A DNA stretch of 23,829 nt from a virus (Duplodnaviria > Heunggongvirae > Uroviricota > Caudoviricetes): the IMG/VR virus record IMGVR_UViG_2751185958_000017. One strand, 5' to 3'. The position numbers were made by a program, and so were the translations under genes. Of the stretch, positions 4,656 to 19,939 are shown piece after piece. The notes beneath the pieces are model-generated. The model saw only the letters and a program-made list of their open reading frames with translations. It was not told the origin of the DNA and did not search any database. Positions within the stretch are counted from its first letter, which is position 1, and every line of letters begins with the position of its first letter.

Positions 4656-5003
4656 TCAACTCACAGGGATGGTTAACGAAAGTGGCTGGCCGGTGTCGTT
4701 GTGCTGACCGGTTAACGTGACCGTCATTCGCCCGTCAAAACTGCGCGCCGTGGTGACGGATGACAGGGTGACGCGGGGTTCCCATTTCAGCACTGCCATG
4801 TAACAGGCGACCTTAATCTGCAACTCAAGCGCCGGGGTCTGCGGCTGGTCAATCATTGATGCCAGCAACGAGCCGTAATCACGACGCATCACCCGTGAGC
4901 CGACCGGTGTGCGCAGGATATCGCCGATACTCTGGCTGATATGCTCAAGGTCAGTGACCGTCAGGCCATCACTGCGATTCATTCCGAGATAACGCGCTGT
5001 CAT
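4656..5003 (-). CDS. W: Baseplate assembly protein W (P2 W homolog; gp25-like)
   Basis: 115-aa ORF, same length as P2 W; start overlaps the V stop. Confidence 0.85.
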   Translation of the reverse strand: MTARYLGMNRSDGLTVTDLEHISQSIGDILRTPVGSRVMRRDYGSLLASMIDQPQTPALELQIKVACYMAVLKWEPRVTLSSVTTARSFDGRMTVTLTGQHNDTGQPLSLTIPVS

Positions 5004-5629
5004 AGAGGACTCCCGGTTGTGCCGCCGCTGTCGCCGGGGTGTTTATGGGTATGCAGTACCTTCCCGTTTGATGAAAGTTCACCGCCGGTGTGTTCAATGT
5101 TGCCGCGCATCGTCCCGCCCTTCTGCACTTCCAGCGTGCCGGTAATCAGCTTGTTGGTGCAGACCACCTCCGGTGTGTCCAGGGTGACGCGGGTTGATGC
5201 TTTCACCATGACCACCGGCACCGTGGCAGTAACAGAATCAGAAGCCGTCACGCTGGCCGTTTTAATTCCGCTTACCGTGAGTGCACTGGTTTCAGGTTCA
5301 TACTCAATCACCGCCCCGTCAGGGAAACGGATATGCAGGGCATCCGCCGACGCCGACGGCGCGGGGTTATCGCCGGAATAAATCCCCGGCAGAACGAACG
5401 CCGTGTCGAGTTCACCGCCCACGGCCAGAATCAGCACCTGTTCCCCCACGGAAGGTGCCCACCATGTGCGCGAACGACCGGCGCGATGGGTCAGCCACTG
5501 AAGCCAGTCGGTGCACATGCCGCCGGTCTGCACACGGCAGCGACCGGCATTAAGGTCGGTTTCGACGATAATGCCAGTGCGAATCATATTGCGTATAAAG
5601 CGAAGAATTTCATTGTATTGTGCATTCAT
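5000..5629 (-). CDS. V: Baseplate spike/assembly protein V (P2 V homolog)
   Basis: The track ORF 5000..5707 has an internal Met giving MNAQYNEILRFIRNMIRTGIIVETDLNAGRCRVQTGGM..., which matches the P2 V N-terminus as I remember it; start set at the ATG at 5627-5629 rather than the upstream in-frame Met. Confidence 0.82.
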   Translation of the reverse strand: MNAQYNEILRFIRNMIRTGIIVETDLNAGRCRVQTGGMCTDWLQWLTHRAGRSRTWWAPSVGEQVLILAVGGELDTAFVLPGIYSGDNPAPSASADALHIRFPDGAVIEYEPETSALTVSGIKTASVTASDSVTATVPVVMVKASTRVTLDTPEVVCTNKLITGTLEVQKGGTMRGNIEHTGGELSSNGKVLHTHKHPGDSGGTTGSPL

Positions 5630-5647
5630 TCGATAATAATGATTCTG

Positions 5648-5653
5648 TACAAT
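5648..5653 (+). promoter_or_regulatory. Candidate -10 hexamer (TACAAT) for the cargo gene in the V/cargo divergent intergenic region
   Basis: TACAAT about 60 nt upstream of the proposed cargo start; no good -35 found; sequence-only guess. Confidence 0.2.
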
Positions 5654-5715
5654 CTCGAAGTAAATCACACCACGATTTCTGGTGCACAGAACAACAAGGG
5701 ACAACAAAATCCATT

Positions 5716-6852
5716 ATGAGTACTTACTTTTTCTCGTCAGAAACAATGAAAGAATTGTTCAAAGATTATCTGGTCTTTTTGAACACGCTGACTCCCGGCA
5801 CAAACTTTGAATCAAGCAGAAACAAAATAATTGCTCAAGCAATAAACTTCATTTCCGAAAACCCTGAAGATTGGGACAAAAAATCCCAGTACAACATTGC
5901 TATGATTGGCGACACCTTTAAAAGTTTCTTAAGAGAAAAGGGAGAAGATAACAACAGCATCAACCTTATATTCACTTGCTTTTTTAGATTTATCATTGAA
6001 CCAAGCATTCTCTCTCCGGAAATAGAGTCTCACTTTTCACCACTAAGAACCATCAAGGATTTTGCTCTGTATAACTATAATGAATTCGATGAGCGGAGCA
6101 GAGCACAGATAGACTTTTCTCTTAGAGAACTGCCATTAGCAATGGTTAAAGAAGTTTTAAGCTCCAGCAATGTTGACACATATAAAAAATACATTGATAG
6201 TTTAAACGAAGGGCGTCAATTTTTCGAAAAGTGCGACTCCTTCTTAAAGGAGCAACATGCCAAAATAGAGTCAATCAAAGAGTCATTAAAAGGGTATGAG
6301 GTCGCATTTAATTTTGTTGGATTGTTTGAAGGCTTTAATTCACTTGGCAAAAAGAAAGAAAGTGAAATCATGCTATCAAGAATAATTCTTATCATCTTGG
6401 CTATAATCATTCCCTCCCCGCTGATATACTATGGAATGCATAAATTACCAGCTCTCGAAACGACAAATGCTGCCACATATTTTATGTCAGCACTACCTTT
6501 TGCATCAGTTACATTGATTTTCATGTATTACTTTAGAGTTGTACTGCTAAATCATATATCGTTACGAACTCAGATTATGCAAATAGAACTCAGAAAGAGC
6601 CTTTGTCAGTTCATTCAGAGTTATAGCGACTATTCCTCAGAGATAAGGAAAAACAATCCGGAAGCGCTTTCAAAATTCGAAGACGTAGTATTTTCAAACA
6701 TCATGCTATCCGATGATAAGATACCATCTACATTTGATGGCATTGAGCAAATAGCATCGTTAATCAATTCATTAAAAATGGAAAGTAATGATAAAAGGCC
6801 AATAACTGGCCTTTTATTTATTAACATGAAAATTCAAAATAAATTATGCTAA
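5716..6852 (+). CDS. AT-rich cargo gene at the P2 orf30 position: 378-aa predicted membrane protein with two central transmembrane helices; function unknown, candidate superinfection-exclusion or abortive-infection protein
   Basis: Long ORF on the strand opposite the flanking late genes; much lower GC than its neighbours; start chosen at the ATG at 5716 (MSTYFFSSETMKELF...) with a weak aaggga Shine-Dalgarno 14 nt upstream, because the track start at 5620 overlaps the V start; hydrophobic stretches IMLSRIILIILAIIIPSPLIYYGM and YFMSALPFASVTLIFMYYFRVVLL. Confidence 0.7.
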   Translation: MSTYFFSSETMKELFKDYLVFLNTLTPGTNFESSRNKIIAQAINFISENPEDWDKKSQYNIAMIGDTFKSFLREKGEDNNSINLIFTCFFRFIIEPSILSPEIESHFSPLRTIKDFALYNYNEFDERSRAQIDFSLRELPLAMVKEVLSSSNVDTYKKYIDSLNEGRQFFEKCDSFLKEQHAKIESIKESLKGYEVAFNFVGLFEGFNSLGKKKESEIMLSRIILIILAIIIPSPLIYYGMHKLPALETTNAATYFMSALPFASVTLIFMYYFRVVLLNHISLRTQIMQIELRKSLCQFIQSYSDYSSEIRKNNPEALSKFEDVVFSNIMLSDDKIPSTFDGIEQIASLINSLKMESNDKRPITGLLFINMKIQNKLC

Positions 6853-6890
6853 TCAATTGATTTCTATCTTATATTCTCAGATGATTAAAG

Positions 6891-7343
6891 CTAACGATTC
6901 AGGTGAGCCAGGATAATCTCTTCAATCATCTGCACATCCTCACCGGTAAAGCCGAGCAGAGGACGCGCCGGATATTCAATTTTCTTACCGTCTTTCCGGG
7001 TTTCTTCCGACAGACCGAACTGATGCACACTGGCTATTTTCGGTGACTTCCCGCCGTAAAACTCCATTGATGCCTGTTCAGGGCTGGCGCGGATATGCAA
7101 AAAACGACTGGTGATAAGTTTCGCAAACATTTTTCGCTTAACGCGACCGGTCTTTTTTCTGGCGCTCTGCTGCTGGCGTGGTGCGTAGGGTGTGCCGTCC
7201 GGGGCTTTCTGTGCCATCACCCGACGCTGCTGACTCTGACGCAGACGTTTCGCCAGTTCGGCGCTCAGTCGCCGACGCCCTGACGGTGACAGCGACTCAA
7301 TCAGTCCGGTCAGCCTGTCTTCAAAACGCTTAAACTCATTCAT
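6891..7343 (-). CDS. S: Tail completion protein S (P2 S homolog)
   Basis: 150-aa ORF, same length as P2 S; position R-S. Confidence 0.85.
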   Translation of the reverse strand: MNEFKRFEDRLTGLIESLSPSGRRRLSAELAKRLRQSQQRRVMAQKAPDGTPYAPRQQQSARKKTGRVKRKMFAKLITSRFLHIRASPEQASMEFYGGKSPKIASVHQFGLSEETRKDGKKIEYPARPLLGFTGEDVQMIEEIILAHLNR

Positions 7344-7791
7344 CCCACTTACTCACCAGTTCGCCATTGATATAAAGCTCCATCGGGCGGGTGACCGGCT
7401 CCGGCGGCGGAGGTTCCGGGATATTCTTCACATGCAGCGCGCCGTCCACCTCACTGACCAGCGTGCGCTCGGTCAGCATCAGGCTGATGCTGATATCAAA
7501 GCTGCTGTCATTGTTGATGTCTGCATAAAACGTGAAGCCCTTTTTCGTGGTCATGATGTCGGGCTGATTTTCCCGCAGCCACGCCAGCACCGGCACGATG
7601 AGCAGGTCAAAATCACCGGTAAAGTCGGTCACAATGACATTGAGCGTGTAACGCTTTTCGAACGACAGCGACGTCGCCAGTGTGGAGGCAATACTCCCGT
7701 TATCCACGAATATCCGCAGCATATCGGGGTTAGTTTTCAGCACCGTGACGGCATCAGTCAGCGCCCTGCGCAGGCTGTCGGGTTTGAGCAT
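7336..7791 (-). CDS. R: Tail completion protein R (P2 R homolog)
   Basis: 151-aa ORF between the lysis genes and S, overlapping the S start. Confidence 0.85.
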   Translation of the reverse strand: MLKPDSLRRALTDAVTVLKTNPDMLRIFVDNGSIASTLATSLSFEKRYTLNVIVTDFTGDFDLLIVPVLAWLRENQPDIMTTKKGFTFYADINNDSSFDISISLMLTERTLVSEVDGALHVKNIPEPPPPEPVTRPMELYINGELVSKWDE

Positions 7792-8044
7792 CGTTTTCGT
7801 CCTGACAGTGTTTAATCATTTTTACCTGGCTGGCACAGCGTGCCAGCGCGTTCTCAAGCTGCCGGATATCGGCACTTAAATCGCCGTTCTTCTGCGGGTC
7901 ACTGCCCGGCATCGGGCAAAGGCTCACTTTCGGGCAGGCGTTGGCGACAATCACTGGCGTCAGTGCAGGCCGGACGCTGGTGCAACCGGCGCACAGCATC
8001 AGGCAGGTCAGCGCCATACCAGCGGCGGAAATCCTCGTTTTCAT
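7754..8044 (-). CDS. lysC: LysC, outer-membrane lipoprotein spanin (Rz1-like), embedded out of frame in lysB and R
   Basis: Internal start of ORF 7754..8161 at the ATG at 8042-8044 with a gagg Shine-Dalgarno; MKTRISAAGMALTCLMLCAGC has a signal peptide and lipobox (LCAGC); proline-rich mature region; overlaps lysB in another frame. Confidence 0.7.
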   Translation of the reverse strand: MKTRISAAGMALTCLMLCAGCTSVRPALTPVIVANACPKVSLCPMPGSDPQKNGDLSADIRQLENALARCASQVKMIKHCQDENDAQTRQPAQGAD

Positions 8045-8324
8045 TAAGTAACCTCGTGATGGTTTTCTCGCGCAGTGCTTCACGCTTCGCGGCGTTCTCC
8101 AGTTCCTGACGCAGTGCCACCTGCGCCAGCTCGTTTTTGTCTGCCCTGGTGAGTGCAACATGAAGCTGATTTTTCAGCATGGTGATGGTCGTCTGCTGCC
8201 CGCTGGCGACGCTGTTCGCCCTGTCCAGTGAGGTGCGCAGGCTGGCATTTTCATGCTTCACCAGAAACAGCCCCGGCACCGCCAGTGATAACAACACAAC
8301 CAGCACAATCATCAGCTTTGACAT
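7899..8324 (-). CDS. lysB: LysB, inner-membrane spanin (Rz-like)
   Basis: 141-aa ORF, same length as P2 LysB; N-terminal TM helix MSKLMIVLVVLLSLAVPGLFLV followed by a charged helical region. Confidence 0.82.
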   Translation of the reverse strand: MSKLMIVLVVLLSLAVPGLFLVKHENASLRTSLDRANSVASGQQTTITMLKNQLHVALTRADKNELAQVALRQELENAAKREALREKTITRLLNENEDFRRWYGADLPDAVRRLHQRPACTDASDCRQRLPESEPLPDAGQ

Positions 8325-8737
8325 GGTTCCCGCCCCTCAAAACGCTGACGGCAGGCCGTACGTATCAGCCGGAAGAACACCGACGCCACAAGATAAATCA
8401 GCGCGGTAAAAATCCACCCGGCAGCGACCAGCGCGATAAACGTCGCCACCATCACCACCAGAGCCGCCGCCCGTCTGCGCCACGGCACCGGCTGCAAAAA
8501 CAGCGACGTGACAATCTTCACGGCCAGCGATTCCGGCGGCAGCTCCCGCCCGTAGCGTTCCAGCACATACTCAGTGGCATACACCCCGACACCACCGGTA
8601 ACCACACAGATAACCGTCGCCAGAATCGCCCAGGCGGCGACAAAATTGACGGCCACGCTCTGCGGGTAAATCAGGGACAGTGCCAGCATCAGCGCCAGCG
8701 ACACGTTCAGCATCTGTGAAAGGGATAATTTCTTCAT
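8312..8737 (-). CDS. lysA: LysA, lysis-timing membrane protein (P2 LysA homolog)
   Basis: 141-aa multi-TM protein between K and lysB. Confidence 0.78.
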   Translation of the reverse strand: MKKLSLSQMLNVSLALMLALSLIYPQSVAVNFVAAWAILATVICVVTGGVGVYATEYVLERYGRELPPESLAVKIVTSLFLQPVPWRRRAAALVVMVATFIALVAAGWIFTALIYLVASVFFRLIRTACRQRFEGREPCQS

Positions 8738-8751
8738 GGTGTTTACTCCGT

Positions 8752-9249
8752 TTAAGCCGGTACGCCGCCAGCGGTACGCCAGACGGTGACCAGTTTTTCC
8801 AGTGAATGCTCACGCTGACCGTAACCGGCACCCGGCAGGGACGCCCAGATATTGCGACAGCGTGAAATGGCGCGCTCAATACGTCCCGCCCGGATGTCAT
8901 CCAGCGCACCGCGTTCGCGGATCAACTGAATGGCGAGTCTGTCCTGTGACAACGGACTGAAATCCGGCAGGGCAAGCTGTTTGCGGTAATGCGGCCAGAA
9001 CAGGTAAAGCTGCTGATAGCGACCGGAGGCCGTGGATTTTTCACCGCGACGGTTAAACACCTTCGCCGGTCGGCCATGTGCGAACGGGTGGTCACTGTAG
9101 TCGGTGAAAATTTCCGGCTTTCCGTCCAGTCCGGTGACTATCACGTCATAGCCCCGGTTTTTCGTCAGCGGATGGTTCGCCGTCCCTTCGGACACGGCCA
9201 GCATGTCGAGAAAGGCGGCGATATTCTGATGCGTGTTAATAACCGGCAT
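8752..9249 (-). CDS. K: Endolysin (P2 K homolog, lysozyme)
   Basis: 165-aa ORF, same length as P2 K, directly downstream of the holin. Confidence 0.88.
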   Translation of the reverse strand: MPVINTHQNIAAFLDMLAVSEGTANHPLTKNRGYDVIVTGLDGKPEIFTDYSDHPFAHGRPAKVFNRRGEKSTASGRYQQLYLFWPHYRKQLALPDFSPLSQDRLAIQLIRERGALDDIRAGRIERAISRCRNIWASLPGAGYGQREHSLEKLVTVWRTAGGVPA

Positions 9250-9530
9250 TACGGTTTCCCCCTGCCCTTAAAGCGGCGCTGAATGGCAATCTCAATCACC
9301 TGATAACCGGCGATACCCAGCATGGAGCCGATGCCGCACACCGCAGGCAATGACAGGTCAGGAAACTGCACCAGAACAACACCGGCAACCATCGAGACAA
9401 AACCACCGAGCAACATGCGCCCGATAAACAGACGCGGGGTGATGGGTTCACCACCGGCAAGCACCTTGCCGACAACAATCAGCACCCCAATCATGAAAAG
9501 CGACAGGACGCTTTTTTCTTCTGCTGTCAT
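9249..9530 (-). CDS. Y: Holin (P2 Y homolog)
   Basis: 93-aa ORF, same length as P2 Y, with hydrophobic segments (LSLFMIGVLIVVGKVLAGG...). Confidence 0.85.
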   Translation of the reverse strand: MTAEEKSVLSLFMIGVLIVVGKVLAGGEPITPRLFIGRMLLGGFVSMVAGVVLVQFPDLSLPAVCGIGSMLGIAGYQVIEIAIQRRFKGRGKP

Positions 9531-13258: not shown

Positions 13259-15031
13259 ATGACCATCACCACAGACACCACTCTTTTACACGACCCGCGT
13301 CGTCAGGCGGCGCTGCTGTACTGGCAGGGATTTTCCGTGCCGCAGATTGCCGCCATGTTGCAGATGAAACGCCCGACGGTGCAGAGCTGGAAGCAGCGCG
13401 ACGGCTGGGACAGCGTTGCCCCCATCAGCCGTGTCGAAATGAGTCTGGAAGCGCGGCTGACCCAGCTCATCATCAAACCGCAGAAAACCGGCGGTGACTT
13501 CAAGGAAATTGACCTGCTCGGACGCCAGATTGAACGACTGGCACGGGTCAACCGTTACAGTCAGACCGGCAACGAGGCAGACCTTAATCCGAACGTCGCT
13601 AACCGCAACAAAGGCGGGCGTCGCAAACCGAAAAAGAATTTTTTCAGTGACGAGGCCATCGAAAAGCTGGAGCAGATTTTCTTTGAGCAGTCTTTCGACT
13701 ATCAGTTGCACTGGTATCGCGCCGGGCTTGAGCACCGCATCCGCGATATCCTGAAATCCCGCCAGATTGGCGCGACGTTTTATTTTTCCCGCGAGGCGCT
13801 GCTGCGCGCCCTGAAAACCGGCCATAACCAGATTTTTCTGTCGGCCAGTAAAACGCAGGCGTATGTGTTCCGTGAATACATCATCGCCTTTGCCCGTCTG
13901 GTTGACGTTGACCTTACCGGTGACCCGATTGTCCTGGGCAATAACGGCGCAAAACTGATTTTTCTCGGCACCAACTCCAACACCGCACAGAGCCATAACG
14001 GCGACCTGTACGTCGATGAGATTTTCTGGATCCCGAATTTTCAGGTACTGCGTAAGGTGGCATCAGGTATGGCCTCACAGAGCCACCTGCGCTCGACCTA
14101 TTTCTCCACCCCGTCCACGCTGGCGCACGACGCCTACCCGTTCTGGTCGGGTGAACTGTTCAACCGGGGACGCGCCAGCGCCGCCGAACGCGTGGAAATC
14201 GACGTCAGTCATAACGCCCTTGCCGGAGGTCTTCTCTGTGCGGACGGCCAGTGGCGGCAGATTGTCACCATTGAGGACGCCCTGAAAGGCGGCTGCACGC
14301 TGTTCGACATTGAGCAGCTCAAACGCGAAAACAGCGCCGACGATTTTAAAAACCTGTTCATGTGTGAATTTGTTGACGACAAGGCATCGGTGTTCCCGTT
14401 CGAGGAGCTGCAACGCTGCATGGTCGACACGCTGGAAGAATGGGAAGACTATGCACCCTTTGCCGCCAATCCGTTCGGCTCCCGCCCGGTATGGATTGGT
14501 TACGACCCGTCACACCGTGGCGACAGTGCCGGATGCGTGGTGCTGGCACCGCCGGTGGTGGCCGGTGGCAAATTCAGAATACTTGAGCGTCACCAGTGGA
14601 AAGGCATGGACTTTGCCACCCAGGCTGAATCCATCCGCAAACTCACCGAAAAATATAACGTCGAATACATCGGTATTGATGCCACCGGCCTCGGTGTCGG
14701 CGTGTTCCAGCTCGTGCGCTCGTTCTATCCTGCCGCGCGCGATATCCGCTACACACCGGAAATGAAAACCGCAATGGTGCTCAAGGCAAAAGACGTTATC
14801 CGCCGTGGCTGTCTGGAATATGACGTCAGCGCCACCGACATCACCAGCTCGTTTATGGCTATCCGCAAGACCATGACCAGCAGCGGACGCATCGCCACCT
14901 ATGAGGCCAGCCGCAGCGAGGAAGCCAGCCACGCCGACCTCGCCTGGGCGACCATGCACGCCCTGTTAAATGAGCCACTCACCGCCGGTATCAGCACCCC
15001 GCTGACATCCACCATTCTGGAGTTTTACTGA
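13259..15031 (+). CDS. P: Terminase large (ATPase) subunit (P2 P homolog)
   Basis: Start at MTITTDTTLLHDPRRQAALLYWQGFSVPQIAAM... with a gaggt Shine-Dalgarno; 590 aa, the P2 P length; stop overlaps the Q start (TGATG). Confidence 0.9.
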   Translation: MTITTDTTLLHDPRRQAALLYWQGFSVPQIAAMLQMKRPTVQSWKQRDGWDSVAPISRVEMSLEARLTQLIIKPQKTGGDFKEIDLLGRQIERLARVNRYSQTGNEADLNPNVANRNKGGRRKPKKNFFSDEAIEKLEQIFFEQSFDYQLHWYRAGLEHRIRDILKSRQIGATFYFSREALLRALKTGHNQIFLSASKTQAYVFREYIIAFARLVDVDLTGDPIVLGNNGAKLIFLGTNSNTAQSHNGDLYVDEIFWIPNFQVLRKVASGMASQSHLRSTYFSTPSTLAHDAYPFWSGELFNRGRASAAERVEIDVSHNALAGGLLCADGQWRQIVTIEDALKGGCTLFDIEQLKRENSADDFKNLFMCEFVDDKASVFPFEELQRCMVDTLEEWEDYAPFAANPFGSRPVWIGYDPSHRGDSAGCVVLAPPVVAGGKFRILERHQWKGMDFATQAESIRKLTEKYNVEYIGIDATGLGVGVFQLVRSFYPAARDIRYTPEMKTAMVLKAKDVIRRGCLEYDVSATDITSSFMAIRKTMTSSGRIATYEASRSEEASHADLAWATMHALLNEPLTAGISTPLTSTILEFY

Positions 15032-16065
15032 TGAGCAAGAAAAAAGGGAAAACACCGCAACCTGCGGCAAAAAAAATGACCGCCAGCGCCCCGAAAATGG
15101 AGGCATTCACCTTTGGTGAGCCGGTGCCGGTACTCGACCGCCGTGACATTCTGGATTACGTCGAGTGCATCAGTAACGGCAGATGGTATGAGCCACCGGT
15201 CAGCTTTACCGGTCTGGCAAAAAGTCTGCGTGCTGCCGTGCATCACAGCTCACCGATTTACGTTAAACGCAATATTCTGGCCTCGACATTTATCCCGCAT
15301 CCGTGGCTTTCCCAGCAGGATTTCAGCCGCTTTGTGCTGGATTTTCTGGTGTTCGGTAATGCGTTTCTGGAAAAGCGATACAGCACCACCGGTAAGGTCA
15401 TCAGACTGGAAACCTCACCGGCAAAATATACCCGCCGTGGTGTGGAGGAGGATGTTTACTGGTGGGTACCGTCCTTCAACGAGCCGACACCTTTCACGCC
15501 CGGCTCCGTATTTCACCTGCTGGAGCCCGATATTAATCAGGAGCTGTACGGCCTGCCGGAATATCTCAGCGCCCTTAACTCTGCCTGGCTGAATGAATCG
15601 GCCACGCTGTTCCGCCGCAAGTATTACGAAAACGGCGCACATGCCGGATACATCATGTACGTCACCGATGCCGTGCAGGATCGCAACGATATCGAAATGC
15701 TCCGCGAAAACATGGTGAAGTCGAAAGGCCGCAACAACTTTAAAAACCTGTTTCTCTATGCCCCACAGGGGAAAGCCGACGGCATTAAAATTATCCCGCT
15801 CAGTGAAGTGGCAACGAAGGACGATTTTTTTAATATCAAAAAAGCCAGCGCCGCTGACCTGCTGGACGCGCACCGCATCCCCTTTCAGTTGATGGGCGGC
15901 AAGCCGGAGAACGTCGGGTCGCTGGGCGATATTGAGAAAGTGGCAAAGGTCTTTGTCCGCAATGAGCTTATCCCGCTACAGGACAGGATCCGCGAGATAA
16001 ACGGCTGGCTCGGCCAGGAAGTCATCCGCTTTAAAAACTACTCACTGGACACTGACAACAGCTGA
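15031..16065 (+). CDS. Q: Portal (capsid vertex) protein (P2 Q homolog)
   Basis: 344-aa ORF, same length as P2 Q, adjacent to cos as in P2. Confidence 0.9.
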   Translation: MSKKKGKTPQPAAKKMTASAPKMEAFTFGEPVPVLDRRDILDYVECISNGRWYEPPVSFTGLAKSLRAAVHHSSPIYVKRNILASTFIPHPWLSQQDFSRFVLDFLVFGNAFLEKRYSTTGKVIRLETSPAKYTRRGVEEDVYWWVPSFNEPTPFTPGSVFHLLEPDINQELYGLPEYLSALNSAWLNESATLFRRKYYENGAHAGYIMYVTDAVQDRNDIEMLRENMVKSKGRNNFKNLFLYAPQGKADGIKIIPLSEVATKDDFFNIKKASAADLLDAHRIPFQLMGGKPENVGSLGDIEKVAKVFVRNELIPLQDRIREINGWLGQEVIRFKNYSLDTDNS

Positions 16066-16469: not shown

Positions 16470-17399
16470 TCAAACCAGGCTTTTGCCTTGCTTCATTTTT
16501 TTAGATGAGTCTAAAAATTTGAAATTATCATTAGATGAAAATATTCTTTCTGCGGTATGCCGAATGACTGAAGTATTGAAGACCGCAGCCTGCTCCTCAT
16601 TACAACTGAATACACCCTCATGACCATCAAACTCGCCCGCCAAAAGAAGGTTTTTTGATACTGGGAACAAAACTAAAGTGTCTTTTACACCAAACCCGGG
16701 GGAATAAGGGCCTCGTGCTAATTCAGGATTAGTCCACATTAAGCAAACTGGGTTATCTGAAGTTATAAATGACCCTTGCCCATCAGATATGGTCATAAGT
16801 GACCAGTTGCGTTGATGCAACAACTTGGTGATAACAGGTACACATTTCATTTCCATATCTATCATGAACTCTCTGATTACATTGATTTCGAAATTATCCC
16901 CATCCACAAAATTTTTAATTTTTTCGTAAGCGAGATCATATGGCAAAGACTCACCCATTTCTTTCTCATAAGCTAATTTGCAATCGTCCCAACGCTCAGC
17001 CGAACTAACTGAGGATTTCATGATAAACTTTGCTATTTGTTTCAATGGAGATGATAAATGTTCTCGCTGAGCAGGCGTACGTATTGCCAATAAGGAAATA
17101 AACTCCAGAATAACATCTTTGGTTTCGCCTGAAAACTCGCCCCCCTCCTCAAGTTTTCTTAAATGAGTAGCGACACTGCCTTCAAACTCTGCAAGAGAAC
17201 TCTCGAGATAGTTTGGGTCAACTCCATCCAATTCTAATCGGTTGAAATCTCTAACCCCCCCGACATTGCGAGTATTACTCTCAAAGGTTTTGCGCTCCTT
17301 TAAATCTATTACAGTTAATTTTGATTTTTTCCCCCCATTACTTGTAAACCCTTTCAAATAACATTGGGATAAAAAATGATGATGCCTTGCAACACTCAT
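16470..17399 (-). CDS. AT-rich cargo gene at the P2 tin/old position: 309-aa DUF4238-like protein; candidate phage-exclusion protein
   Basis: Sole gene between cos and A, where P2 carries orf91/tin/old; start at MSVARHHHFLSQCYLKGF... with a ggag Shine-Dalgarno; the N-terminal HHxxxQxYLKxF motif resembles the conserved N-terminus of DUF4238 proteins as I remember it; GC well below the flanking phage genes. Confidence 0.7.
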   Translation of the reverse strand: MSVARHHHFLSQCYLKGFTSNGGKKSKLTVIDLKERKTFESNTRNVGGVRDFNRLELDGVDPNYLESSLAEFEGSVATHLRKLEEGGEFSGETKDVILEFISLLAIRTPAQREHLSSPLKQIAKFIMKSSVSSAERWDDCKLAYEKEMGESLPYDLAYEKIKNFVDGDNFEINVIREFMIDMEMKCVPVITKLLHQRNWSLMTISDGQGSFITSDNPVCLMWTNPELARGPYSPGFGVKDTLVLFPVSKNLLLAGEFDGHEGVFSCNEEQAAVFNTSVIRHTAERIFSSNDNFKFLDSSKKMKQGKSLV

Positions 17400-17502
17400 A
17401 CTCAGCTCCGTTATGGCTATAATCGCATAAATAATAAGCACTTATATTGCAATCATCTAGTTAAATACACAATATTTATGACTCCGAAATTTCATTAAAT
17501 CA

Positions 17503-19674
17503 CTATTGATAGGTTTTACCAATTAGTGCCAGCTCGAAATGGATGCGTGGAATCTGCGAACGTTCAGCCTTTGTCATCCGCCCTGATGGCGCTATCTGGT
17601 ACGGTTTTAATGGTTCGCAGTTTCTTTGTTGCCAATTCGGTCTCGGTGCACCATGTTTTAATGCACTCCTGAGCACCGTCACAACTTCCGGGTCATCCCA
17701 TCCGATAACACCACTATCAACCAGATTTAACACCGCTGCGGCATGCTCAGACGGTGTAGGGTGCATAACCGGAACGTCACCGCCGGTGAACTTTCCACAG
17801 TTATTGACAGGACTCCGAGGCGCGGCGATGCCGCTTTTTAAAGTCAAAGGCTCAACGACCGGCACTTTCGGCACAATGCGCCAGTCCGTCGTTCTGGTGA
17901 TATGAATATGACGCGCGCCGAGATGCGGCGCGTAAATGCCGACCACTCTCTCGACTTCTTCCTCGTACTCGTTAACTTCATCCGACGGGCTACGGGCGAC
18001 CCTGACAGTCTGACAATCGCGCGGGACATTTGCCCCACCCTGCGCGCTGATATACAACGCAAAATCACCACTGTCTGCGGCGGCGCGAGCAGCCTCGACG
18101 CGCTCGTCAAACTCATCAGCAATGCTGACGCCGCGCGGCAATTTGCGTAGTTCACGGTAAGCCCCCATTGTCGGCAGACCAACCGTTTTAAATTGTGGGA
18201 TGCGCCACGTTGACGCCCATGCGGTAACAGCCGCGGCAGTATCTTTAAGCGGCTTACCGGTATCGTTATCGAGCTGACCATCCAGTGCATAGCCGTCGAT
18301 ATTTTTTGAGATGTATTTCGCGATATACCCCGCAGCACCGCCCCGGTTAAGGTGTTTCGCCTGAAAACGGTTTCGCGCAGCTCCTCTTTCGTCGCCATCC
18401 TCTTTGAGCGCATAGCGACGCATGATTTCGATAATCTGGTTACGCTGGCGCGGATTACAAAAAAGCATCATATGCCAGTGCGGCGTTCCGTCGTGGTGTG
18501 GCTCGACGACACGCAAACCGTAGACCTGTAAATCATTATCCTTGAATGCCGTGCGCATCAGGCTCCAGATACGGCAGAGATAACGCTGCGCATCCTTTGG
18601 ATTAAATGCCTCATCGTTCCAGCCGTGATTTAGCTGGACGGTTTTACTTTCGCCTTTTCTGACCTGACGTGTCGGGTGATACTTTGACGGCGCGGTCAGC
18701 GTGATAAACATCCCCACATCACCCTCTGCTGCGGCGTAACGCTCAATACCGGCAATGGTGTTCATCAGCTCCATCCGGCGAATTTCAGGATTAGAAATAC
18801 TGCCCATCACCTTACTGATAAGGTCGATGCGCTCGCCGGTTTCCCTGTTTTCAAGGTCACATGATTTAAGAAATTCCAGATTTGCCTGGCGGCGCGCACG
18901 CACATCACGAATGGCATGTTTACTGGCATAAGGAGAACGGTCTTTATTGACCTCCCCGACAGCTATCAGTAACGCCTCATGCCAGCGCATACGCTGGCCT
19001 TTAAGCTGATGAGTCCACCACTCATCGTTAAACAGGCGGGCAATGGCAGAATATGCCTGCCTCGTGGTCATCTGTCCTTTACGGTATTTTTTCCAGTAGA
19101 GCGGGGAAATATTGAAAGCACGTGCAGCGCCAGCAACATGACCATAAAGGTGAGCCTGCGCCTCATCCGTAAACAGCGATTCTTTTTCGCCATGTGCATC
19201 AACCCAGGCATCGCAGAGTTCCTCATACATCATGAAAAGCTGCGATGAGATACGGGCAGCAAACTTTTTCAGCTCCTTGTCATTCATTCCCGGCAGGCGC
19301 GCATAGTGGTCACGCTCTGCCAGAAACAGCAACGACGCGTCGGTGTTCATTTCATGGCGCTGATTCACACGCTCAATGCGCGGCCATAAACGACGCTGAA
19401 AAGTGGATGTGAGGAAATAAAACCCGTGCACCGGGCTTTTATTGCGCCGGATGTAGTCATAACGTGAAGTAAACAGCGAGCGCAAAAAGTAAGGCAGGCG
19501 GTTAATCGTGGATAAAACACCTTGCACCTGACGCATCTCGTCACGTGTAAGGGGTCTTTCGCGCCCGACAGCCTCGCGTGGCGCGTTCCATGCATAAGCA
19601 CCGGTAAACGTCTTACCGGTGCCTGCGGCAAATGCTGACGGAGGGACAAAACGCCCGGAGGCTTTAACGGCCAT
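17503..19674 (-). CDS. A: Replication initiation protein, rolling-circle endonuclease (P2 A homolog)
   Basis: Start set at MAVKASGRFVPPSAFAAGTGKTF... (the P2 A N-terminus as I recall it) with a gagg Shine-Dalgarno, not the upstream Met of the track ORF; about 723 aa; contains VVEPHHDGTPHWHMMLF, a HUH-type metal-binding motif. Confidence 0.88.
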   Translation of the reverse strand: MAVKASGRFVPPSAFAAGTGKTFTGAYAWNAPREAVGRERPLTRDEMRQVQGVLSTINRLPYFLRSLFTSRYDYIRRNKSPVHGFYFLTSTFQRRLWPRIERVNQRHEMNTDASLLFLAERDHYARLPGMNDKELKKFAARISSQLFMMYEELCDAWVDAHGEKESLFTDEAQAHLYGHVAGAARAFNISPLYWKKYRKGQMTTRQAYSAIARLFNDEWWTHQLKGQRMRWHEALLIAVGEVNKDRSPYASKHAIRDVRARRQANLEFLKSCDLENRETGERIDLISKVMGSISNPEIRRMELMNTIAGIERYAAAEGDVGMFITLTAPSKYHPTRQVRKGESKTVQLNHGWNDEAFNPKDAQRYLCRIWSLMRTAFKDNDLQVYGLRVVEPHHDGTPHWHMMLFCNPRQRNQIIEIMRRYALKEDGDERGAARNRFQAKHLNRGGAAGYIAKYISKNIDGYALDGQLDNDTGKPLKDTAAAVTAWASTWRIPQFKTVGLPTMGAYRELRKLPRGVSIADEFDERVEAARAAADSGDFALYISAQGGANVPRDCQTVRVARSPSDEVNEYEEEVERVVGIYAPHLGARHIHITRTTDWRIVPKVPVVEPLTLKSGIAAPRSPVNNCGKFTGGDVPVMHPTPSEHAAAVLNLVDSGVIGWDDPEVVTVLRSALKHGAPRPNWQQRNCEPLKPYQIAPSGRMTKAERSQIPRIHFELALIGKTYQ

Positions 19675-19939
19675 ATGAGCCAAAAGCCTCTGAACAACGC
19701 CTGCTGAGTTGCTCAACCTGCGCGTTTAAATCAGCAAAAGACTTTGCGCTTCCGGTCAGAATATCGTGATGCATCAGGCCGGAAACGAGCTGGCTTAATT
19801 TCGGGTAATAACCAACCACCGCCAGCCATTCCTGACCGGCGTTTTTACCGCTTTCCGCTCTCTTTTTCTCGTGGAGAATAAACTGAAAGCTGTCACTGGT
19901 AACGACATAACGTTCGCCAATTTCAATACGAATGCTCAT
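19664..19939 (-). CDS. Hypothetical protein (P2 orf83-position small ORF)
   Basis: 91-aa ORF upstream of and overlapping the A start; conserved position in P2-like early operons. Confidence 0.6.
   Translation of the reverse strand: MSIRIEIGERYVVTSDSFQFILHEKKRAESGKNAGQEWLAVVGYYPKLSQLVSGLMHHDILTGSAKSFADLNAQVEQLSRRCSEAFGSYGR

Follow-up and report, generated by a model that had tools for sequence, protein, structure and literature searches.

The stretch of DNA analysed here (the window; 23,829 nucleotides, IMG/VR virus record IMGVR_UViG_2751185958_000017) is a P2-like prophage with its genes ordered from left to right as G, H, I, J, W, V, a cargo gene, S and R, followed by lysis genes, head genes, P, Q, a DUF4238 gene, A, cox, C and int. 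The cargo gene, which reads rightwards from position 5716, is supported as an AT-rich, horizontally acquired gene for a membrane protein at the position occupied in P2 by orf30. The family to which it belongs is new to description, being large, taxonomically broad, uniform in architecture, carried by two temperate-phage lineages and without a model in Pfam, NCBIfam or PADLOC; its kind is already familiar, namely a prophage 'moron', AT-rich and coding for a membrane protein, at a P2 site known for horizontal transfer, and a candidate defence gene. It is quite possible, though short of probable, that the protein acts on its own in defence or exclusion by sensing events in the cytoplasm; a mechanism of pore formation or depolarisation specifically is less likely than that role.

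The cargo gene and the slot between V and S

The gene is antisense to the flanking genes encoding gpV and gpS and differs sharply from them in composition. GC content is 0.35 across the cargo gene (5600–6999) as against 0.55–0.60 (about 0.58) on either side, and by codon position it is 0.31–0.37 at all three positions in the cargo gene and 0.44–0.64 in V and S. These features bear out the original prediction of a low-GC gene on the opposite strand, with the same slot and orientation as P2 orf30 and a foreign GC content consistent with horizontally acquired cargo. The late genes of P2 form four operons (PQ, ONMLKRS, VWJIHG and FI-FII-E-T-U-D; PMC3931495), and because S closes the P_O operon and V opens the P_V operon, the slot is situated between operons and outside any of them; the description of the gene as inserted in the late tail operon is thus incorrect. 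The orf30 position is one of three regions in which P2-like phages accumulate foreign genes (PMC3091744).

At the right junction, homology to P2 and Wphi returns within about 10 nucleotides (nt) of the S stop codon. At the left junction, identity with Wphi and P2 is regained only at about 5592, inside V, so that the cargo is accompanied by the initial ~12 codons of V together with the entire P_V promoter region; as this variant 5′ end is part of the cassette, the left recombination junction falls inside an essential baseplate gene. V is 209 amino acids (aa) long here and 211 aa at orf30-type or empty loci, and at an identical locus in RefSeq the 630-nt gene is labelled 'phage baseplate assembly protein V'. 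The junctions imply that the cassette is probably exchanged between P2-like phages by recombination within V and S. The features of the locus are as follows (basis in parentheses).

5000–5629, − strand: gpV (baseplate spike), left flank of the slot and first gene of the P_V late operon (open reading frame [ORF] list)
5592–5629, − strand: variant AT-rich 5′ end of V, first ~12 codons (MNAQYNEILRFI...), part of the exchanged cassette (Wphi/P2 alignment)
5630–5715, no strand: divergent V/cargo intergenic region, 86 bp (sequence)
5716–6852, + strand: cargo ORF as read in the window, 378 aa (ORF list, translation)
6774–6778, + strand: A5 homopolymer, A6 in relatives; the −1 frameshift swaps NGK and the stop codon for a 24-residue tail
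6786–6788, + strand: native TAA stop codon of the family, out of frame in the window
6791–6817, no strand: intrinsic-terminator hairpin AAAAGGCCA-ATAA-TGGCCTTTT, set between an A-tract and a T-tract (scan and RNA fold)
6891–7343, − strand: gpS (tail completion), right flank of the slot and final gene of the P_O late operon (ORF list and RefSeq)

The 378-aa ORF of the original prediction is present as translated, but its 3′ end is the product of a frameshift. The A-run contains six residues at all 16 loci where it is readable (the complete E. coli genome L003 and 15 IMG/VR copies), and the best of the 60 complete E. coli genome matches exceed the query by one base. The native protein is 357 aa long and ends ...SLKNGK at the stop codon at 6786–6788, whereas in the window frame the final three residues give way to 24 unrelated ones (MESNDKRPITG...KLC) and reading passes the terminator and ends at 6852. 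A5 recurs only in a 6.7-kb IMG/VR contig (L103) that is 100% identical over the cassette and may therefore come from the same strain. A rare allele and a homopolymer sequencing error are the two explanations for the shorter run. An account in which the window copy is an inactive, decaying allele, or the indel an error, with read-through past the terminator adding the 24-residue tail, draws on the A5 run, which departs from the A6 of every other copy examined except the one identical contig, and on the commonness of homopolymer indels among assembly errors. It has little probability: the replacement affects just the three terminal residues (NGK), which are not conserved, and leaves the 354 conserved ones untouched, and the C-termini of the family naturally vary in length.

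The start codon at ATG 5716 is supported by the invariance of F6 across the family, while the RefSeq start call in some genomes is M11; a GTG start at 5620 would overlap V and lacks support from homologues. The ORF is confirmed as a real gene and not a chance reading frame by its 341 homologues, its 923 clusters, and ratios of nonsynonymous to synonymous substitution (dN/dS) of 0.06–0.37 in every region.

The 86-bp spacer between V and the cargo gene must hold both the leftwards P_V late promoter and the rightwards promoter and 5′ untranslated region of the cargo gene. No exact Ogr-type site (TGT-N12-ACA) was found upstream of V in the cassette spacer. A scan for terminators and promoters revealed an inverted repeat (CACCAG-N5-GTGGTG) at 5666–5686 in this spacer, and it may be a regulator binding site. 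At the other end, the hairpin at 6791–6817 sits directly after the native stop codon and is unusually stable (−16.2 kcal/mol, z = −5.1, with 0 of 200 shuffles equally stable). The terminator scan called it terminator-like on the − strand; with A- and T-tracts flanking the stem it can serve both directions, stopping the cargo transcript on one strand and, on the other, transcripts that enter from S. No RNA family in Rfam was matched anywhere in the window.

Architecture and conservation of the protein family

A full-length match (E=1.1e-132, 443.9 bits, residues 15–355 on profile positions 9–386 of 388) places the protein in PHROG 9373, a family annotated as 'unknown function', and the protein is a 'hypothetical protein' in every source, in agreement with the suggestion that the family is undescribed. 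One search returned 341 homologues at E<=1e-3, and an exhaustive profile search returned 923 representative clusters at 50% identity, nearly all 340–400 aa and mostly about 355 aa in length. Members are found in the Enterobacterales, Vibrio, Aeromonas, Pseudomonas, Pasteurellaceae, Neisseriaceae and many Betaproteobacteria and, beyond the Gamma- and Betaproteobacteria, in Geobacter/Desulfobacterota and some Bacteroidota. There is no consistent match in Pfam or NCBIfam for the protein, or in Pfam for 53 diverse members; PDB sequence searches with the protein and its profile gave nothing below E=0.02, and a comparison of the full-length structural model with BFVD gave no hit at E<=0.001. The Pfam and PADLOC searches that the original prediction had proposed as a check gave no match for the protein, and the reported lack of a recognisable catalytic motif stands, with no domain or motif found in the Pfam, NCBIfam, PADLOC and PDB searches. 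No paper in the literature examined mentions WP_000661081, and the DefensePredictor supplements do not contain the accession.

The protein consists of the following segments, for which identities are mean pairwise values across the 53 diverse members and hydrophobicities are Kyte-Doolittle maxima over 19 residues.

5716–6165, + strand: residues 1–150 (N-domain), a variable, confidently folded all-helical bundle, predicted cytoplasmic; identity 0.23
6166–6306, + strand: residues 151–197, long helix/coiled-coil linker (AlphaFold2 helix 152–197); identity 0.21
6307–6366, + strand: residues 198–217, conserved juxtamembrane motif AFNFVGLxxGFxxLxxxKxxE (alignments); identity 0.54
6367–6435, + strand: residues 218–240, transmembrane (TM) helix 1, hydrophobicity 2.40 (family mean 2.21); identity 0.24, with identity 0.09 in the loop that follows
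6478–6549, + strand: residues 255–278, TM helix 2, hydrophobicity 1.80 (family mean 2.14), conserved P261, S264, Y271, F273 and R274; identity 0.42
6550–6777, + strand: residues 279–354, the most conserved module, predicted cytoplasmic, identity 0.51–0.57 (post-TM2 helix, QIELRKSLCQFIQSY, 0.57; C-terminal module, KFEDVIFSNIM...KIPSTFDGIEQ, 0.51)

The two hydrophobic helices that had been predicted are both present and remain hydrophobic across the 53 members, and no segment beyond 218–241 and 255–278 exceeds 1.5. The soluble regions on either side are also as described, except in size: they measure about 217 aa (not 230 aa) at the N-terminus and, in the native protein, about 79 aa (not 90 aa) at the C-terminus. 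Within the juxtamembrane motif, N199, F200, L203, G206, F207 and K214 are invariant or nearly so in two alignments; invariant residues over the whole protein include E95, F200, K214, Y271, F273/R274, R293, C297 and D341/G342. The E. coli and E. albertii alleles share 62% identity in the N-domain. Against diverged alleles, dN/dS is higher in the N-domain (0.18–0.37) than in the membrane and C-terminal part (0.09–0.15), with all regions falling within 0.06–0.37, which shows that the gene is under purifying selection.

The structure prediction that had been proposed was made with AlphaFold2, and its full-length model is all-helical with a mean predicted local distance difference test (pLDDT) score of 79. 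The N-terminal bundle (1–150) is compact and, when modelled alone, reaches a pLDDT of 94 and a predicted template-modelling score of 0.89. After the helix at 152–197, an amphipathic stretch runs into TM1 and is followed by a short loop; TM2 and its cytoplasmic extension form a single helix of 62 residues (252–313), succeeded by two further helices and a low-confidence tail. Across the family the loop between the TM helices has a median length of 16 aa, and lysine plus arginine residues number 3.3 on the N-terminal flank and 1.15 in the loop. Two helices joined by a short loop, with a positive-inside charge bias, fit an N-in/C-in hairpin, and the protein is accordingly predicted to be an inner-membrane hairpin with essentially all of its soluble mass in the cytoplasm. 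The contrast between a variable N-domain and a conserved membrane/C-terminal module fits a division into sensor and effector, residues 1–150 being a putative sensor or partner-binding domain.

Genomic contexts of the family

Association with temperate phages is the strongest contextual signal. At 68 of 80 IMG/VR loci the family gene is in the V–S slot of a P2-like phage, and this placement holds even where V is 54–78% identical to that of the window and the cargo 33–45% identical; the same arrangement occurs in isolated Yersinia Peduoviridae and in a Citrobacter prophage. In two IMG/VR contigs (L168 and L169) with V about 38% identical, the family member is between S and V on the same strand as the late genes. 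A distant relative, 26–30% identical, is found on approximately 223 Klebsiella plasmids of ~110 kb (SSU5-like phage-plasmids); it can be aligned over the coiled coil, the TM region and the C-terminal part, though not over the N-domain, with the alignable extent varying by plasmid. In Klebsiella phage pJN2-26 (L002:4572-5738) the distant relative again lies antisense, with the DNA ligase gene and the primase gene on either side.

Among 1625 E. coli genomes with the W–R region, 59–60 carry this gene. The slot is mostly empty in the sampled E. coli loci, while many have orf30 and a few have a gene for a 246-aa HNH-like protein; in Wphi, fiAA91-ss and many others V and S are separated by about 70 bp without a gene, and the present gene is absent from P2, Wphi and other isolated Peduoviruses. 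It is the slot's main cargo other than orf30. The third cargo, found in E. coli 20AR1039 and similar genomes (L012:1058-1798, − strand), encodes the 246-aa protein, which is soluble, has a GC content of 0.36, is co-oriented with the late genes, and has a weak HNH-like motif (Pfam HNH_5, E=0.009). Several P2-like contigs have a second cargo beside the family member (L146:7041-7868, L140:6100-6729, L126:6192-6857 and L141:4503-5270); these second cargoes include a HigB/HigA toxin-antitoxin pair, an ORF6N-domain protein, an 8xMP 'octameric membrane protein' (PF24838, E=2.9e-37) and a 256-aa multi-TM protein flanked by duplicated V and S fragments. Kinship of the family with the slot-sharing 8xMP protein was considered and rejected (hhalign probability 0.15%). 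Elsewhere in the window, a 323-aa DUF4238 protein (16470–17441, − strand; Pfam 5e-39; PADLOC DUF4238-Pers E=1.8e-219), the product of a recognised P2-hotspot defence gene, is encoded at the site of the old/tin hotspot, between portal gene Q (15031–16065) and the gpA gene (17503–19716).

A member in the chromosome of Enterobacter ludwigii (L006:6001-7065 and L007:1124-2376; 43% identical) is beside a 61-aa gpS remnant without other phage genes nearby. It has a chemoreceptor gene on one side and unrelated genes on the other, and the collection indexes it in 84 blocks. That it adjoins only the gpS remnant indicates that the cargo was kept while the prophage decayed. No conserved partner gene is present in 78 loci from different species, in which the most frequent neighbour cluster occurs in 10 loci at varying positions; without a conserved neighbour, the protein is expected to work alone or with universal host components. 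The nearest neighbours are mixed and include hisB in five Pasteurellaceae, two-component systems, gpV, integrases, SMC-like ATPases and Tex. Single instances match PADLOC models (a dGTPase, a DRT reverse transcriptase, AriA, NsnB and PDC candidates), and in one island of a metagenome-assembled genome putAbiC is two genes downstream of the family member.

Proposed role and relationship to known systems

In the role proposed, the gene would be a self-contained moron in the orf30 slot, read antisense to the late genes and closed by its own terminator; we infer its expression in the lysogen, together with the topology, the defence role and the membrane-permeabilising mechanism. Its product, an inner-membrane protein of ~357 aa, would join a variable cytoplasmic helical bundle through a coiled-coil linker to the N-in/C-in hairpin, with an invariant core made up of the juxtamembrane motif, TM2 and the ~80-aa cytoplasmic C-terminal module. 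The N-domain would detect a phage-derived or phage-perturbed cytoplasmic cue, upon which the membrane/C-terminal module would oligomerise and cause ion leak or depolarisation of the inner membrane, such that infection is aborted. A stand-alone defence role is suggested by the combination of a variable domain with a conserved core, by the lack of a partner gene, by the occurrence in phage cargo slots and scattered islands, and by retention after prophage decay. The presence elsewhere in the slot of HigBA, the 8xMP membrane protein, the three-TM Orf30 and the HNH-like protein is suggestive, as is the DUF4238 defence gene that this prophage already carries in its old/tin hotspot; defence-gene neighbours at some loci are suggestive but weak. 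A broader and decidedly speculative possibility is that the family represents widespread one-protein inner-membrane immune sensors, in which a fast-evolving bundle would bind a phage component and free a pore-forming hairpin/C-terminal module, in the manner of MLKL and CC-NLR proteins, and which would have been spread by P2-like phages and SSU5-like phage-plasmids.

Several observations weigh against a defence role. PADLOC-DB v2.0.0 gave no family for the protein at E<=1 and only scattered single hits (E>=0.003, nothing consistent) for the 53 members, so that the PADLOC searches contain no homology to any validated defence protein, and fold searches yield only generic coiled coils and helical bundles. 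The SLATT profiles of Pfam do not hit the protein, and one of the 53 members hits SLATT_5 at E=0.035. The V–S slot of E. coli has few states (empty, orf30, this gene or the HNH-like gene), unlike the hypervariable P2 defence hotspots. Immediate neighbours in bacterial genomes are mostly ordinary genes such as hisB, two-component systems and Tex, and only a handful of 141 nearest neighbours match specific PADLOC models, a weak enrichment given as a count without a background rate. A promoter scan of the + strand of 5630–5715 found no sigma-70-like site better than in shuffled sequence; an element TTGAGT-N16-CATAAT does recur in diverged relatives 72–83 nt upstream of the start, but, because of its overlap with the first codon of V, its conservation is ambiguous and proves nothing. 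The window copy also has the C-terminal frameshift.

The weight of housekeeping and regulatory genes among the bacterial neighbours, the lack of matches to defence models, the breadth, age and purifying selection of the family, and the same insertion adjoining hisB at five Pasteurellaceae loci would all suit a membrane protein of lysogenic conversion or host fitness acting outside defence, e.g. in envelope stress tolerance, signalling or modulation of a host membrane complex. Such a role is rather unlikely given a distribution that is patchy and island-like without conserved context, the strong enrichment in temperate-phage cargo slots, and a fast-evolving N-domain of a type more typical of conflict genes. 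Superinfection exclusion in the manner of HK97 gp15, P22 SieA and T4 Imm, in which the protein would block entry of an incoming genome at the inner membrane by interfering with a channel or host factor and the cell would survive, is somewhat less likely again. A prophage moron encoding an inner-membrane protein beside tail genes follows the genomic logic of HK97 gp15, and carriage by two unrelated temperate-phage lineages without a partner gene is compatible with it; however, the predicted periplasmic part is the poorly conserved loop of ~16 residues, the conserved and large parts are cytoplasmic, and many members are in non-phage chromosomal contexts across phyla. With almost nothing exposed to the periplasm, exclusion at the stage of DNA entry is disfavoured.

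That the protein serves the phage's own lytic growth or induction (in lysis timing, counter-defence, interference with satellites such as P4 or control of the neighbouring late promoters, for example) is improbable. The V–S position is constant across highly diverged P2-like phages, the 5′ region of the gene overlaps the P_V promoter region, and the gene is co-oriented with the late genes in the two distant P2-like contigs mentioned above, but most P2-like prophages lack it (about 60 of the 1625 E. coli genomes with the region have it, and the slot is usually empty), as do P2, Wphi and other isolated Peduoviruses, many genomes contain it with no phage genes nearby, and it has been kept after prophage decay. 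A class II holin (about 70–100 aa, two TM helices) was rejected, as the protein is 357 aa with about 300 soluble residues and its gene is outside the lysis cassette (about 7754–9530) and on the opposite strand.

P2-like prophages have proved to be a source of new defence systems, and work has centred on the old/tin and Z/fun hotspots; Rousset 2022, the 2026 NAR P2/P4 study and the iLund4u preprint do not mention orf30, gpV or gpS and name P2 defence loci by other landmarks. In E. coli alone, thousands of uncharacterised candidate defence genes are predicted (PMC13092281), and a family without a Pfam, NCBIfam or PADLOC model is invisible to defence annotation that uses those libraries. If defensive, the protein would provide a further membrane effector, compact, encoded by one gene and equipped with a separable sensor domain, and would open a third P2 locus and the ligase–primase slot of the Klebsiella phage-plasmids to systematic mining; if not defensive, it is still a very common membrane protein of temperate phages.

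Among known systems, the four-helix-bundle executioner domains (MLKL 4HB, plant NLR CC domains and HeLo) are listed with the closest. The SLATT-type two-TM effectors (Pfam SLATT_1-6) share the two-helix hairpin with cytoplasmic flanks and the long helix that continues from TM2; Burroughs and colleagues reportedly proposed in 2015 that the SLATT domains of CBASS-like conflict systems act by membrane disruption. The present family differs in having its own N-terminal bundle and conserved C-terminal module, and no neighbour cluster that could supply a SMODS-, SLOG- or TIR-type signalling partner or nucleotide-signal synthase occurs in more than 10 of the 78 loci or at a fixed position. Lambda RexB, HK97 gp15, P22 SieA and T4 Imm are small-to-medium inner-membrane proteins that protect the lysogen and are likened to prophage-expressed morons; RexB has four TM helices and needs RexA, and gp15 and Imm are much smaller than the present protein, which differs further in its about 300 cytoplasmic residues and in having no homology to any of them (PADLOC and Pfam negative).

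The closest parallels in genomic terms are within P2-like prophages. The old, tin and fun(Z) genes and related hotspot cargo (Rousset et al. 2022) are likewise non-essential AT-rich cargo, but are situated at other loci, whereas the present slot has few states and its gene is missed by PADLOC. P2 Orf30 is non-essential and regarded as horizontally acquired (PMC3091744), and shares with the present gene the S–V slot, the antisense orientation, a low GC content (0.33) and a predicted membrane location. Alignment of the two proteins, which had been proposed as a check, gave no homology (BLASTP best E=0.89 over 28 residues), and kinship was rejected. P2 Orf30 (L005:620-1405) has hydrophobic segments at residues 6–31, 106–132 and 220–241 and no Pfam or PADLOC match. 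It is thus a protein of 261 aa with three predicted TM segments as compared with 357 aa and a hairpin here, and its cassette spares the 5′ end of V, whereas the present cassette replaces it.

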